A program made the translations under genes and the position numbers. The notes under the pieces were generated by a model. It was not told the origin of the DNA and made no database searches. It worked only from the letters and a program-made list of their open reading frames with translations. From an uncultured Pelagibacteraceae bacterium (lineage in GTDB: Bacteria > Pseudomonadota > Alphaproteobacteria > Pelagibacterales > Pelagibacteraceae), in assembly GCA_902632935.1 (NCBI GenBank), contig CACPEJ010000001.1, positions 21,179 through 85,178 of the forward strand: a DNA stretch of 64,000 nucleotides, in the 5' to 3' direction. Positions 27,837 to 33,017 of the stretch are shown here, piece after piece; the stretch's first letter is position 1, and each line of letters starts with the position of its first letter.

Positions 27837-28913
27837 ATGATAATTAGATTTAAAAATTTTACACATTTTTTATATATTTTTTTTGCATTTCTATCTTTAA
27901 ATATATTTTTTTTTTCCACAGATAAAGTGGAGGCAAAATCTTTTGATGTAAATAATATTGAAATTTCAAAGCCGTTTGAAATAAATTTTGATAAAAATAA
28001 GGTTATAGATGAAGGTTTTATTAAAGCTTTCGCTAGATTAATCTCAACTATTACAGTTTCTTCAGATCAAGAAATAATTAAAGGAATAAAATTAGCTGAG
28101 ATAAAAGGAATGATAGAGTCTTTTTCTGTAAAAGAGGAAAAGTTTATTGATGAGACTTATTATGTAAATTTGGGTGTCGCTTTTAACAAAAAAAAAATTT
28201 TCAATTACTTAGAAAATAAAAATGTGTTCCCATCAGTTCCAAATAGAAAAAAATTCTTATTGTTTCCGATTATAATAGAAGAAAAAAATGACAATTTAAT
28301 AGCCTTTTCAGAAAATAACTTATTTAACAATTGGAATAAGCATAATAAAAAATCACATCTTCTCGAGTATCTTTTGCCAACTGAAGATCTAGAAGATTTA
28401 AATCTCATAAAAAAAAATTACGAGACAATTGAAAAATATAATTTCAAAGAGATTACCAGGAAATATAATTTAGATGACTCAATTGTAACTTTAGTTTTTA
28501 AAAATAATAATAACGTAAGAATTTTATCAAGAATTACAATCGAGGACAAAGTAGTTTTAAAAAATCTCTCATTTTCTGATATAAATTTTGATGATGAAGA
28601 CGATATTATAAATTTAATAGATAAATTAAAAATAATTTACGAAGATCATTGGAAAATTTTTAATAGAATTAATACCTCAATTAAACTTCCAATATTTGTC
28701 AAATTAGATTCTGATGATAATTTGAAAGTTTCAAATTTTGAGAAAATATTAAATGAGATAAATTTAGTATATGACTATTTTGTTTTAAAATTTGATAAAA
28801 ATCATATTTATTATCAAATTGTTTTTAATGGTACCCCAAATATATTTTTAAAATTAATGAAAGATAAAAATTTTGTTTTTAGCACTCAGAATAAGACATG
28901 GATTTTACAATGA
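27837..28913 (+). CDS. Exported/membrane-anchored protein, DUF2066-like
   Basis: N-terminal hydrophobic segment; divergent from purM and upstream of hda, the usual proteobacterial position. Confidence 0.65.
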   Translation: MIIRFKNFTHFLYIFFAFLSLNIFFFSTDKVEAKSFDVNNIEISKPFEINFDKNKVIDEGFIKAFARLISTITVSSDQEIIKGIKLAEIKGMIESFSVKEEKFIDETYYVNLGVAFNKKKIFNYLENKNVFPSVPNRKKFLLFPIIIEEKNDNLIAFSENNLFNNWNKHNKKSHLLEYLLPTEDLEDLNLIKKNYETIEKYNFKEITRKYNLDDSIVTLVFKNNNNVRILSRITIEDKVVLKNLSFSDINFDDEDDIINLIDKLKIIYEDHWKIFNRINTSIKLPIFVKLDSDDNLKVSNFEKILNEINLVYDYFVLKFDKNHIYYQIVFNGTPNIFLKLMKDKNFVFSTQNKTWILQ

Positions 28914-29572
28914 AAGATATAGATCAAGAAATTATCAAATTTAATTATGATGGTAATTTTAAAGAAGATGATTTTTATGTATCAAAAAGCAATAAACAAA
29001 TATTTGATTTATTAAACAAATGGCCTAAATGGGAAAAAAATTTTCTCAATATAAGCGGTGAAAAATTTTCTGGAAAGACACATTTAATTAATATTTTTTT
29101 AAAAAAATATAAAGGAACTAAAATTGAAGCTAATTTACTATGTGATAATGATTTTAAAAAAATAAAAATCTTTCAAAATATTATTTTAGAAAATGTGTCT
29201 GAAAAGATAAATGAAAATTTATTTTTTACCCTGTGTAATATTGTTGAACAAGATAACAAATATCTAATAGTTACCTCTGAAAGTTCTATAGTAAGTATTG
29301 ATTTTAAGTTGAATGATTTAAAATCAAGATCAAAAAATTTTTTACTTCAAAATATTGATAAACCCGATGATGAACTTTTATTCGCACTAATTTTAAAAAA
29401 TTTATCTGATCGTCAAATATCAATAGATAAAAAATTAATTGACTATATTATTAAAAGAATTGATAGATCATATGGAAAAATAGTTGATTTTATATATAAA
29501 ATCGATGAATTAAGTTTAAAAAAAAAAAGATCTATAAATTTAAGTACAATTAAAGAAGTATTGGGAGAATAA
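28898..29572 (+). CDS. hda: DnaA regulatory inactivator Hda/HdaA-like AAA+ protein
   Basis: DDFYVSKSN, Walker A GEKFSGKTHL, DLKSR and RIDRS motifs. Alternative start at 28910. Confidence 0.8.
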   Translation: MDFTMKDIDQEIIKFNYDGNFKEDDFYVSKSNKQIFDLLNKWPKWEKNFLNISGEKFSGKTHLINIFLKKYKGTKIEANLLCDNDFKKIKIFQNIILENVSEKINENLFFTLCNIVEQDNKYLIVTSESSIVSIDFKLNDLKSRSKNFLLQNIDKPDDELLFALILKNLSDRQISIDKKLIDYIIKRIDRSYGKIVDFIYKIDELSLKKKRSINLSTIKEVLGE

Positions 29573-31351
29573 TTGAATAAATATAGAAGTCACAATTGTA
29601 ACGAACTTAGAAAAAAAAATGTCGGGAGTAATATTTTACTTTCAGGTTGGATTAATAAGAAACGTGATCATGGAAATCTCTTATTTTTAGATTTACGTGA
29701 TAACTATGGCATCACACAATGTATAGTAGACAAAGAAAATAAAAACTTCAAAGATTTAGAAAAATTACAACTTGAAACAGTTATTAATGTAGAGGGTAAA
29801 GTAGTTGATAGATCAACTGATACAATCAATAAAGAGATAGAAACAGGAGAGATCGAAGTCACTATCGAAAATTTTGTTGTTTTGGGTAAGTGCAAAGAAT
29901 TGCCAATGCCTATTTTTAGTGATCAAGAATATTCTGAAGAAATTAGATTAAAATATAGATATCTAGATTTAAGAAGAAAAAAAATTCATGAAAATATTAT
30001 TTTGAGATCAAAAGTTATATCGTTTATCAGAAACGAAATGAATAAATTTGGTTTCTTAGAGTTTCAAACACCAATATTAACTTCATCTAGTCCTGAGGGA
30101 GCTAGAGATTTTCTTGTGCCAAGTAGATTGAATCCAGGTAAGTTTTATGCTTTGCCGCAGGCACCGCAACAATTTAAGCAACTCATAATGGTCTCAGGTT
30201 TTGATAAATATTTTCAAATCGCCCCATGTTTTAGAGATGAAGATGCTCGTGCTGATCGAAGTCCAGGAGAGTTTTATCAGTTAGATTTAGAGATGTCTTT
30301 TGTTGAGCAAGAGGATGTTTTCAAAGTCGTTGAACAATTATTAATTAACACCTTTAAAAAATTCTCAAAAAAAAAAATTATGACAGAAAAATTTCCAAGA
30401 ATTACTTATAGAGATGCTCTTTTAAAGTATGGAAGTGATAAACCTGATCTTAGAAATCCATTGATAATTGAAGACATAACAGAAACTTTTAAAAGAGAGG
30501 ACGTTTCTTTTGATATCTTTAAAAAACTTGTGAAGTCTGGCTCAAAAGTAAGATGTATTGTTACTCAGAATACGAAAGATAAACCAAGAAGCTTCTTTGA
30601 TAATATTGATAGATGGGCTAAAGACGAGGGAGCTTCTGGATTAGCTTATTTTACTATTGAAAATGGTATTTCTGCAAAAGGACCAGTAGGTAAATTTTTT
30701 TCAAAAGAGTCTTTAGAGGAAATCATGAAAAAAACAAGCGCAAAAGTTGGAGATAGTGTATTTATGGCTTGTAGTAAAAAAAAGGATTTAGAGCGAATAA
30801 CTAGTTTGGCTAGAGATAAAATTGCAAAAGACTTAAATTTAATAGATGATAATGTTTTTGCATTTTGTTGGGTAGTTGATTATCCAATGTTTGAAAAAAA
30901 CGATCAAACAAATAAAATTGAATTTAGTCACAATCCTTTTTCGATGCCGCAAGGAGATACTAAAAAACTTAATTTTGAAAAACCTTTGGACATGTTAGCC
31001 TATCAGTACGATATAGTATGTAATGGGATTGAACTTTCATCTGGTGCTATAAGAAATCATATTCCTGAACTTATGTATAAATTATTTGCTATTGCAGGTT
31101 ATAATAAAGATCAAGTTGACGAAAAATTTAGTGGAATGATTAATGCTTTAAGCTATGGTGCACCACCGCATGGGGGAATTGCTCCTGGAATTGATAGAAT
31201 AATAATGCTTTTGGCAAATGAAAAAAATATTAGGGAAGTAACTATGTTTCCCATGAATCAAAACGCTCAAGATTTAATGATGAATGCTCCATCATCAATA
31301 GATGAGAATCAATTAAAGGAGCTTAATCTAGCTCTCAAAATAAAAAAATAG
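29573..31351 (+). CDS. aspS: Aspartate--tRNA ligase
   Basis: YRSHNC, RDHG, PEGARDFLVPSR, CFRDED and GAPPHGG motifs; TTG start. Confidence 0.98.
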   Translation: MNKYRSHNCNELRKKNVGSNILLSGWINKKRDHGNLLFLDLRDNYGITQCIVDKENKNFKDLEKLQLETVINVEGKVVDRSTDTINKEIETGEIEVTIENFVVLGKCKELPMPIFSDQEYSEEIRLKYRYLDLRRKKIHENIILRSKVISFIRNEMNKFGFLEFQTPILTSSSPEGARDFLVPSRLNPGKFYALPQAPQQFKQLIMVSGFDKYFQIAPCFRDEDARADRSPGEFYQLDLEMSFVEQEDVFKVVEQLLINTFKKFSKKKIMTEKFPRITYRDALLKYGSDKPDLRNPLIIEDITETFKREDVSFDIFKKLVKSGSKVRCIVTQNTKDKPRSFFDNIDRWAKDEGASGLAYFTIENGISAKGPVGKFFSKESLEEIMKKTSAKVGDSVFMACSKKKDLERITSLARDKIAKDLNLIDDNVFAFCWVVDYPMFEKNDQTNKIEFSHNPFSMPQGDTKKLNFEKPLDMLAYQYDIVCNGIELSSGAIRNHIPELMYKLFAIAGYNKDQVDEKFSGMINALSYGAPPHGGIAPGIDRIIMLLANEKNIREVTMFPMNQNAQDLMMNAPSSIDENQLKELNLALKIKK

Positions 31352-31352
31352 A

Positions 31353-32177
31353 TTATTTTTTACCTTTAAGATTTATCTTAACATCCGATAAATCAACTAA
31401 ATTTTTCTTATAGTTATTTCTTACAAAACCTTTACTAGTAATATCCTTTACTATTTTCAAAAGTTGATTTTGATCATCTGAGTTTTGCTCATCAATATTT
31501 GAAATTTCTGAATTACCAATTGATGGAGTATGAGCTAAGTCTTCTCTATTTTGATAAGAGATCGCTAATTCCCTAAAAATGTAGTCTAAAATTGATGTTG
31601 CGGTTAAAATTCTATCATTTCCATGAACTTTACCGGAGGGTTCAAATTTTGTACCAACAAAAGCACTTATAAATTCATCTAGTGGAACCCCATATTGTAG
31701 ACCTAAAGATACTGCTATAGCAAAATTGTTCATTAGAGCTTTGACTAATTCACCCTCTTTGCTTGTATCAATAAAAATTTCTCCAATTTTTCCATCTTCA
31801 TATTCACCTGTGTGTAAATATACTTTATGATCACCGATAGTTGCTTTTTGGATGTACCCTTTTCTTCTATCTGGCATACTAAATCTCTTTCCCGATTTTT
31901 CTGAATTATTATTATTTGACTTGATAATATTCTCTAAATTTTTTGATGATGATTGGTTTTTTGAGGTTACTACATCAATTTTCTTATTTTCAATAATTTT
32001 TTTATTATTTGGATCTAAGCTTTTGGTTTTTCTATTATCAAGTTTTACGTCTAGGACTTCAAATTTACCATCGTCACGTTTTTCTAAATTTTTAAGCTCA
32101 GTTTCATTAATGTCGTCTAAATAATGATTTACTTTAAAAGTACAAGTATAATATGTTTCAACTAAATATTTTGCCAT
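31353..32177 (-). CDS. Orphan class II ribonucleotide reductase C-terminal (TSCPD-like) domain protein, no catalytic domain
   Basis: [55 protein letters not shown] matches the C-terminal domain of alphaproteobacterial NrdJ, but the ORF is only 274 aa. Confidence 0.85.
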
Positions 32178-32296
32178 TTACCCTCAGTTATTATTTTAAA
32201 TTTTATTTGAATAATGAATCAATTAATTTATATACAAAAACAAATTTTAGTCTAATTTAATTTATACAATTTTAAATTGAAAAAAATAATTTTATT

Positions 32297-32656
32297 ATGT
32301 TGACACTTTTTAAAAAAATTTTCACCTGGTGGAATCGAGATACTTTTGGAACCAGAATAAAAACAATTTTATCAGGTAAATTAGTAGGAAAAGATCATTT
32401 AGGAAATAAATATTACGAGTCTAAAAATGGAAAAAGATGGGTTATCTATGCTTCAGAGATTGATGCATCAAAAATACCAGTTGAGTGGTATTCATGGATA
32501 CATTTTACTCATAATAAAATAGAAAATAATCATGAATTAAAAAAATATGACTGGCAAAAACCCCATCAAGAGAATTTAACTGGTACAGAATCAGCTTATT
32601 ATCCAAATAAAAACAAAAATGCTATTCAAAAAAAATATAGGTCTTGGAAAGACTAA
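32297..32656 (+). CDS. NADH:ubiquinone oxidoreductase accessory subunit NDUFA12 family
   Basis: GKDHLGNKYY, RWVIY, IPVEWYSWIH and ENLTGT motifs. Confidence 0.92.
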   Translation: MLTLFKKIFTWWNRDTFGTRIKTILSGKLVGKDHLGNKYYESKNGKRWVIYASEIDASKIPVEWYSWIHFTHNKIENNHELKKYDWQKPHQENLTGTESAYYPNKNKNAIQKKYRSWKD

Positions 32657-33017
32657 ATTTAATTTATTTATATATCTTTTTTTAATCATACCCTTTTTTG
32701 CATATTCTGAGCAAAATCAAGAAGGAAGCTATACTAATATAAAAATTTTAGATAAAATTTCGTCAAAAAATATTTTAATTAAACTTAAAAACGGAGAGGC
32801 AAAAAAACACAAAGATCTTCTAATTAAAAGTATGAAGTGTAAAAATTCTGAATTCGATGATAATCCAGAAATTACAGCCTATATTCAAGTTAGTGATCTA
32901 ACAAATAAAGACAAAGACGATGTGTTTGTTTTTAATGGCTGGATGTTTTCATCAAGCCCGTCTATAACTCCATTTGATCACCCTGTGTATGATATTTGGT
33001 TAGTGAGCTGTTATTAA
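32619..33017 (+). CDS. DUF2155 family exported protein
   Basis: LDKIS and FNGWMFSSSPS..DHPVYDIWLVSC motifs. Confidence 0.88.
   Translation: MLFKKNIGLGKTKFNLFIYLFLIIPFFAYSEQNQEGSYTNIKILDKISSKNILIKLKNGEAKKHKDLLIKSMKCKNSEFDDNPEITAYIQVSDLTNKDKDDVFVFNGWMFSSSPSITPFDHPVYDIWLVSCY

Follow-up and report, generated by a model that had tools for sequence, protein, structure and literature searches.

Class II, vitamin B12-dependent ribonucleotide reductases (RNRs) with long C-termini carry an IscU-like domain in these extensions. It occurs in a large fraction of class II RNRs, has no assigned role, and in most copies lacks the cysteines of IscU (Burnim et al. 2022, PMC9669993). The small subunit NrdJb of Pseudomonas aeruginosa also bears the domain, carries out thiol-disulfide exchange through its terminal cysteines and binds the rim of the active-site cleft of its partner NrdJa (Crona et al. 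2015, PMC4520616). Among solved structures, the alphaproteobacterial type of NrdJ is represented only by chains 7b9p and 7b9q, both of which stop at residue 925, short of the domain. We analysed a 64,000-nucleotide stretch of contig CACPEJ010000001.1 (the window) from an uncultured Pelagibacteraceae bacterium, which contains a gene for a 274-residue protein with this domain and without the catalytic part of the enzyme. The evidence below identifies this gene as a remnant of nrdJ, and the most likely function of its small product is that of a binding or adaptor protein without enzymatic activity. Literature searches found no published description of the remnant or of its HTCC1062 ortholog, SAR11_0723.

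The C-terminal IscU-like domain of alphaproteobacterial NrdJ (PRK07562; PMC9669993) is the direct homolog and ancestor of the remnant; it is likewise cysteine-free, with a SKGF motif in the same place. Unlike NrdJ, the remnant stands alone, without barrel, adenosylcobalamin site, Zn finger or redox cysteine pair; it has gained a beta-hairpin head and ends ∼20 residues past the SKGF motif. P. aeruginosa NrdJb (PMC4520616) is also a small, separate polypeptide with the NrdJ IscU-like domain, but NrdJb feeds electrons through C-terminal cysteines to an NrdJa encoded by the adjacent gene, whereas the remnant has neither such cysteines nor an NrdJa. The remnant passes the Pfam threshold for the stand-alone TSCPD proteins (PF12637), and the NCBI title of SAR11 orthologs is 'TSCPD domain-containing protein'. 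Typical PF12637 members have a TSCPD motif and four conserved cysteines. The remnant differs from them in its TSILD motif, its lack of cysteine in the domain and its descent from NrdJ at its own locus. It may resemble the IscU/NifU scaffold in an alpha+beta fold of similar topology (weak matches, Z 4.2-5.1), and its NNFAIAVS can be seen as a relic of a CGSAIAS-type motif; however, it has no cluster ligands (no cysteine in residues 97-219) and no isc/suf context. Finally, a 276-residue protein of a second streamlined alphaproteobacterial family (f9), and two NrdJ homologs of the Caulobacterales type, also keep a near-consensus tail domain, apparently without a working class II enzyme. The f9 protein differs from the remnant in retaining the Zn ribbon and in having an unrelated, fast-evolving helical N-terminus, and the Caulobacterales type differs in its long degenerate body.

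Origin of the remnant at the nrdJ locus

The gene lies in the window as follows.

31353..32177, minus strand: remnant gene, 274 amino acids plus stop codon; in-situ nrdJ remnant, HTCC1062 ortholog SAR11_0723

The open reading frame is intact, starts with ATG and has GAGGG 5 nt upstream of the start. Pfam recognizes one domain, TSCPD (PF12637), at residues 110-205 with 52.3 bits, above the gathering cut-off of 22.8, and gives no match to PF02867, the ten-stranded alpha/beta barrel domain that in class II enzymes bears the finger-loop thiyl cysteine and an active-site cysteine pair. The NCBIfam model for the B12-dependent enzyme (PRK07562) aligns with residues 71-263 over its positions 944-1133 of 1222 (E 1.9e-66); the score, 224 bits, is far under the 1737-bit cut-off because the remainder of the enzyme is missing. 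In BLASTP, residues 91-253 are 56% identical to full-length NrdJ from the sister family of Pelagibacteraceae in the same order (f2). The sole cysteine is C12, and the protein stops at residue 274, before the position of the Zn ribbon and its cysteine tail. On the 3' side the neighbour is aspS, which is convergent with the remnant, the gene ends being 2 nt apart. On the 5' side is NDUFA12 (PF05071), divergent and 119 nt away, followed by DUF2155, accC, accB and aroQ. The original prediction, made from the letters of the window, had described an intact 274-residue frame between aspS and NDUFA12, with a single cysteine and without the catalytic barrel and the CxxC..CxxC tail, and had proposed, as a possibility, a remnant of a lost B12-dependent RNR. 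Each of these descriptions held, and synteny with the full-length gene of f2 confirmed the proposed origin, as follows.

An order-level survey covered 150 genomes, its ortholog and nrdB tallies including the unpublished genome G111, which contributes to counts only. Among the Pelagibacteraceae (f1), a full-length match to the remnant was present in 88 of 90 genomes from five genera (58-100% identity), in frames of 273-294 residues free of internal stop codons. Assembly gaps account for the two genomes that lack a match: one has NDUFA12 at a contig end, and the other is missing the entire locus. In f2, the match is limited to residues ∼55-263 and lies inside an NrdJ frame of 1194-1203 residues that is complete from the barrel through the tail domain and the Zn ribbon to the terminal cysteine pair. 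The gene order there is that of the window: aspS, nrdJ on the opposite strand, NDUFA12, DUF2155, accC, accB, aroQ. Since this slot holds a full-length nrdJ in f2, the gene in the window is the remnant of a lost B12-dependent RNR; descent from nrdJ follows directly from the orthologous aspS/NDUFA12 position.

The RNR content of the two families differs accordingly. No nrdB was found in the 13 f2 genomes of at least 90% completeness, where NrdJ is the sole RNR large-subunit match, whereas nrdB is present in 130 of 137 f1 genomes. The window's genome (65% complete) has nrdA and nrdB side by side; the nrdA product has 646 residues and a redox tail with CLSC. A whole-genome search for an NrdJ catalytic domain and for nrdAB, as had been suggested, thus located both class I genes and no NrdJ barrel in this genome; at E≤1e-30, none was found in 60 f1 genomes of at least 97% completeness either. 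Synteny and the RNR content of f1 and f2 together indicate that class II was replaced by class I and that nrdJ was cut down in place. We regard this evolutionary account, of an in-situ remnant, a class switch and strong purifying selection (below), as well established. The Pelagibacteraceae switched from the class II B12-dependent enzyme to class I NrdAB, and a deletion at the ancestral locus took away the catalytic part of ∼900 residues together with the Zn ribbon and redox cysteines at the C-terminus. The surviving parts are the IscU-like domain and the short SKGF motif, linked by a disordered linker to a lineage-specific head of ∼53 residues. The switch inside Pelagibacterales, between a B12-dependent NrdJ without detectable nrdB in f2 and B12-independent NrdAB in f1, bears on the ecology of B12 in the ocean.

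The original prediction had also stated that full-length nrdJ is often divergent from NDUFA12 in alphaproteobacteria, and this applied to four of five other genomes: NDUFA12 is directly 5' of nrdJ and divergent from it in G271, G412, G208 and G252, with G417 the exception (three of four families). The pairing is unusually persistent, as it is also found in f1, f2 and f9. Two further observations concern nrdB. Six Pelagibacter genomes (G035, G061, G067, G081, G087 and G119) have a second copy, in a frame of 363-366 residues, and the nrdB of G144 (C1:826105-826924) is broken by four stop codons.

[quoted passage not shown] These labels are wrong, because the proteins have no catalytic domain, and they could make RNR counts, or the B12 dependence inferred from marine metagenomes, too high.

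Anatomy, selection and expression of the remnant protein

Aligned across 32 orthologs that represent five genera, the protein divides into five parts.

32019..32177, minus strand: N-terminal module (head), residues 1-53; predicted long beta-hairpin, dN/dS 0.18
31890..32018, minus strand: first linker, residues 54-96; Asn/Ser/Lys-rich, hypervariable in length and sequence, predicted disordered
31521..31889, minus strand: NrdJ-derived, cysteine-free IscU-like (TSCPD) domain, residues 97-219; 80-92% identity across Pelagibacteraceae genera
31467..31520, minus strand: second linker, residues 220-237; short, variable, acidic, predicted disordered
31356..31466, minus strand: basic C-tail, residues 238-274; conserved, its SKGFVR..NLVDL part common to NrdJ

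An AlphaFold2 model was built on a 70-row alignment. In the head it predicts strands at residues 4-17 and 38-53 with a helix at 25-33 between them, at a predicted local distance difference test (pLDDT) score of 70-81. The invariant residues of the head are K3, Y10, C12, K15, H18, L20, D36, G37, K45, R49, K50 and T51. The head was found only in Pelagibacteraceae; it matched no Pfam family, had no paralog in five SAR11 genomes, and in hhalign showed no similarity to full NrdJ or to a profile of NrdJ N-termini. The IscU-like domain is modelled with a pLDDT above 90 as a three-stranded sheet packed by helices, and the positions of the IscU cysteine ligands are replaced within NNFAIA and TSILD. The C-tail matches the NrdJ consensus SKGFxRGxxPxNLVxL, and the remnant ends where NrdJ goes on into the Zn ribbon and the redox cysteine pair. 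A homodimer prediction with two copies of the remnant scored 0.39 against a mark of 0.42, which speaks neither for a dimer nor against one. The modules are therefore much as the original prediction had drawn them. The beta-looking N-terminal module of ∼55 residues is predicted as a ∼53-residue beta-hairpin with a helix, the Asn/Ser/Lys-rich linker proved hypervariable among orthologs, and the similarity to the NrdJ C-terminal domain, placed at residues ∼98-217, in fact reaches ∼residue 262 (SKGF.R...NLV.L).

The fold was compared with known structures. VIA-align gave Z scores of 5.1 (1q48), 4.2 (4eb5_C) and 4.2 (5uft) for matches that span the IscU-like domain alone, and these IscU/NifU scores tie with those of dimer-interface domains of disulfide reductases. 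Foldseek against the PDB returned nothing at E≤1e-3, with 1wfz at rank 8 (E 0.47), and no PDB entry matched the remnant by sequence. In our own reading of the sequence, NNFAIAVS and TSILD would sit where IscU and TSCPD proteins bear their cysteine motifs.

Constraint on the domain is shared with the full-length enzyme. Twenty-four residues are invariant throughout 25 remnants and 45 NrdJ tails. In a conservation profile of 14 full-length NrdJs, taken from genomes of diverse alphaproteobacterial families, mean pairwise identity is 0.78-0.79 in the tail domain against 0.77-0.81 in the best catalytic windows, and the tail lies above most of the barrel. Since the same surface is constrained after loss of the barrel, it is not merely a barrel contact.

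Selection was estimated by the Nei–Gojobori method over 126 pairs. The ratio of nonsynonymous to synonymous divergence (dN/dS) was lowest in the domain (0.05), followed by the C-tail (0.13) and the head (0.18), with dS at 1.1-1.4; in the linker, dN was saturated. No disrupted copy was found in 88 f1 genomes. More than 8000 metagenomic protein clusters match the remnant, and the best 120 of these are all 274-280 residues long. The claim that the gene has been kept in frame and well conserved is thereby upheld, and for both modules, head and domain, selection is purifying.

In an iron-limitation microarray (PMC2864753 Table S1), SAR11_0723 falls in the 'Exponential Growth' cluster with aspS, SAR11_0724 and NrdR, and nrdA and nrdF fall in iron-stress clusters. 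In a sulfur-limitation study (PMC5069961 Data Set S1), the log2 signal of SAR11_0723 was 4.4-5.6, compared with 4.6-6.5 for aspS and ∼2 for apparently silent neighbours; the signals of nrdA and nrdF, at 9-11.7, were ∼5 units above that of SAR11_0723. Selection, conservation and the transcript in HTCC1062 together establish that the gene is functional and not decaying.

Parallel remnants and the role of the tail domain

A class-wide survey of ∼250 alphaproteobacterial genomes, its domain and NrdA tallies including, for counts only, the unpublished G229 and G403, found the IscU-like domain nearly always inside frames of 1200-1350 residues. The exception is f9, a family with small genomes (1.4-1.6 Mb), in which a remnant of 276-278 residues is divergent from NDUFA12 (L044:4632-5462, plus strand; L045:4744-5580, plus strand; L059; L060). 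Its helical, fast-evolving N-terminus is unrelated to the f1 head. Its domain is near-identical to the NrdJ consensus (dN 0.06-0.10, dS saturated), and it retains the four-cysteine CxxC..CxxC Zn ribbon but has lost the terminal redox pair. The f9 genomes encode NrdAB, and the search for an NrdJ barrel in them found none. Independent truncation in f1 and f9 is the most parsimonious explanation, given the taxonomy, the different architectures and the full gene retained by f2. In the domain tree, the grouping of f1 with f2 has a support of only 71, and the alternative of f1 and f9 as one clade is not rejected by the approximately unbiased test (p-AU 0.55).

NrdJ homologs of Brevundimonas (L126, 898 residues) and Maricaulis (L077, 992 residues) have a near-consensus tail domain, and the barrel motifs PHACFIQ, GSGTG, NPCSEY..CNL, APTGT and ISKTIN are absent or unalignable in both. 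Judged from these motifs, both have the appearance of an NrdJ that lost catalysis and was retained for the tail.

Three smaller observations belong here. The f9 remnant overlaps a downstream gene of 159 residues by 11 nt. Two metagenomic proteins, P0126 (349 residues) and P0134 (294 residues), contain two tandem IscU-like domains each and have their own apparent start codons, P0126 also with the Zn ribbon; they may be further stand-alone or split NrdJ tails in other lineages, or contig-end fragments. A 292-residue match in G285 was rejected as a remnant, being a contig-end fragment of full-length NrdJ.

Going by its residues, the remnant can neither reduce nucleotides nor shuttle electrons nor hold an iron–sulfur (Fe-S) cluster. 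With the catalytic body gone and the tail strongly conserved, the tail is likely to do something other than making DNA precursors. Taking all data together, the explanation we favour, with a probability of roughly 0.55, is an in-situ remnant that acts as a non-catalytic, non-redox binding or adaptor protein. Because the invariant surface residues are the same as in full-length NrdJ, the domain should still bind the ligand or partner of the NrdJ tail, a binding in which the barrel would have no part. A second contact or self-association could come from the basic tail and the conserved head. The function of the tail would then be older than the truncation, which would be the reason that this piece was spared in a genome shedding dispensable DNA. 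The f9 remnant and the Caulobacterales-type homologs lend sequence-level support to a role that may be independent of catalysis. We extend this more tentatively, and at somewhat less than even odds, to the NrdJ tail in general: it may have a second, catalysis-independent function, either the docking of a partner that links deoxynucleoside triphosphate (dNTP) supply to another process or something unrelated to RNR, which would have been salvaged at least twice (Pelagibacteraceae and f9) and kept on a dead scaffold of the Caulobacterales type.

Several points weigh against the adaptor explanation. The mechanism itself, binding, is suggested by conservation only, and the predicted fold matches IscU weakly. 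The domain tree does not tell whether the remnants of f1 and f9 share an origin or arose independently. Furthermore, the IscU-like tail domain is missing from 83 of 251 sampled alphaproteobacterial genomes, so not every alphaproteobacterium needs its function.

The main rival, which we consider unlikely, is that the remnant serves dNTP synthesis as a trans-acting accessory of class I NrdAB, its tail docking on the new enzyme, its reductant or its regulator. Remnants are seen only where a class I RNR operates (f1 and f9), NrdJb docks at the NrdJa cleft rim (PMC4520616), classes I and II share the barrel fold, and the clustering of the HTCC1062 transcript with exponential growth is like that of NrdR. 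However, the domain has no cysteine and therefore no electron relay, NrdA has its own CLSC tail, and the remnant gene is unlinked to nrdAB. The region 5' of the remnant has no site like an NrdR box, whereas nrdA and the f2 nrdJ have such sites; the remnant mRNA is also ∼5 log2 units under those of nrdA and nrdF, which fall in different clusters. The same type of NrdA (60-75% identity) occurs in 115 of 251 alphaproteobacterial genomes, at least 11 of which are without the NrdJ-tail domain, including G209, G210, G211, G215, G216, G233, G241, G243, G244, G255 and G258. The proposal of a non-RNR role in the original prediction thus stands in one part: a non-catalytic, non-redox role is well supported, while separation from RNR is less so, and a link in trans to the class I enzyme, although unlikely, may exist. 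More improbable still is a role in Fe-S or metal handling like that of IscU/NifU, possibly through C12 and H18 of the head, or a functional coupling to the divergent complex I subunit NDUFA12. Weak structural similarity to IscU/NifU/CsdE, the motif-level match (NNFAIA, TSILD), the invariance of C12 and H18, the four-cysteine Zn ribbon of f9 and the divergent nrdJ–NDUFA12 pairing in f1, f2, f9 and four of five other genomes are in its favour, but all three IscU cluster-ligand positions are non-cysteine, one cysteine and one histidine per chain make no site unless the protein forms an oligomer, and the NDUFA12 adjacency is inherited synteny that proves no functional link.

The last two explanations are effectively refuted. 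Split NrdJa/NrdJb enzymes with an IscU-like domain in NrdJb exist (PMC4520616, PMC9669993), and the remnant could in principle be the NrdJb-like small subunit of such a class II RNR with NrdJa encoded elsewhere. Yet the Zn finger and redox cysteine pair that define NrdJb are missing, with no cysteine past position 12, and the searches in the window's genome, in 60 near-complete Pelagibacteraceae and in f9 found no NrdJ barrel; a cognate NrdJa that needs the remnant, the partner in trans that had been considered, was thus found neither in the window's genome nor in these 60 relatives. A functionless, decaying pseudogene or gene-call artefact would fit a fragment of a larger ancestral gene whose linkers evolve very fast, but it is contradicted by an intact frame in all 88 genomes with an assembled locus, by dN/dS ratios of 0.05-0.18 in each of three modules at nearly saturated dS, by transcription in culture and by the uniform length of the best metagenomic clusters.

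The finding has consequences beyond this locus. SAR11, f9 and the apparently dead NrdJ of the Caulobacterales type form a natural deletion series that separates the IscU-like domain from catalysis, and selection on the domain is very strong in genomes that are the most streamlined known from free-living organisms. An open question about RNR thereby becomes tractable through a 274-residue protein of an abundant organism. If the tail does have a second function, a new functional protein family would start with SAR11_0723 as its minimal member, and no other system would be as clean for learning the role of the tail.

Divergent upstream region and neighbouring features

Two further features flank the gene.

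32178..32296, no strand assigned: divergent intergenic region common to the remnant and NDUFA12; 119 bp, promoter-like and conserved motifs
31319..31334, minus strand: terminator-like hairpin, 19 nt 3' of the remnant stop codon, within the 3' end of convergent aspS

The intergenic region contains a promoter-like TTGATT-18-TAAAAT at 32222-32193 (minus strand) and GAGGG at 32181-32185. Genus-wide motifs in it are the palindrome CAATTT-N-AAATTG, then TAGACT, then TTTGTATATA(A/C)AT; GATTC is also conserved there as part of the TTGATT −35-like hexamer. CACAAT..AATTGT variants occur in the intergenic region of more distant genera. A consensus scan of 32178-32296 found no NrdR box, the conserved TTTGTATATA having only the AT-rich core of the box, whereas paired matches to the box pattern lie 5' of nrdA and of the f2 nrdJ. 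The conserved motifs may be a shared operator of both divergent genes; they are not NrdR-like. A search of 31000-32700 with Rfam gave no riboswitch or other RNA family.

The hairpin at 31319..31334 is the only terminator-like one for the remnant and lies inside the aspS coding sequence. On the other side of aspS, which starts with TTG, a gene at 28898-29572 (plus strand) encodes an Hda-like DnaA regulator with the Hda lid domain; this gene shares 16 nt with the DUF2066 gene before it and runs directly up to aspS.

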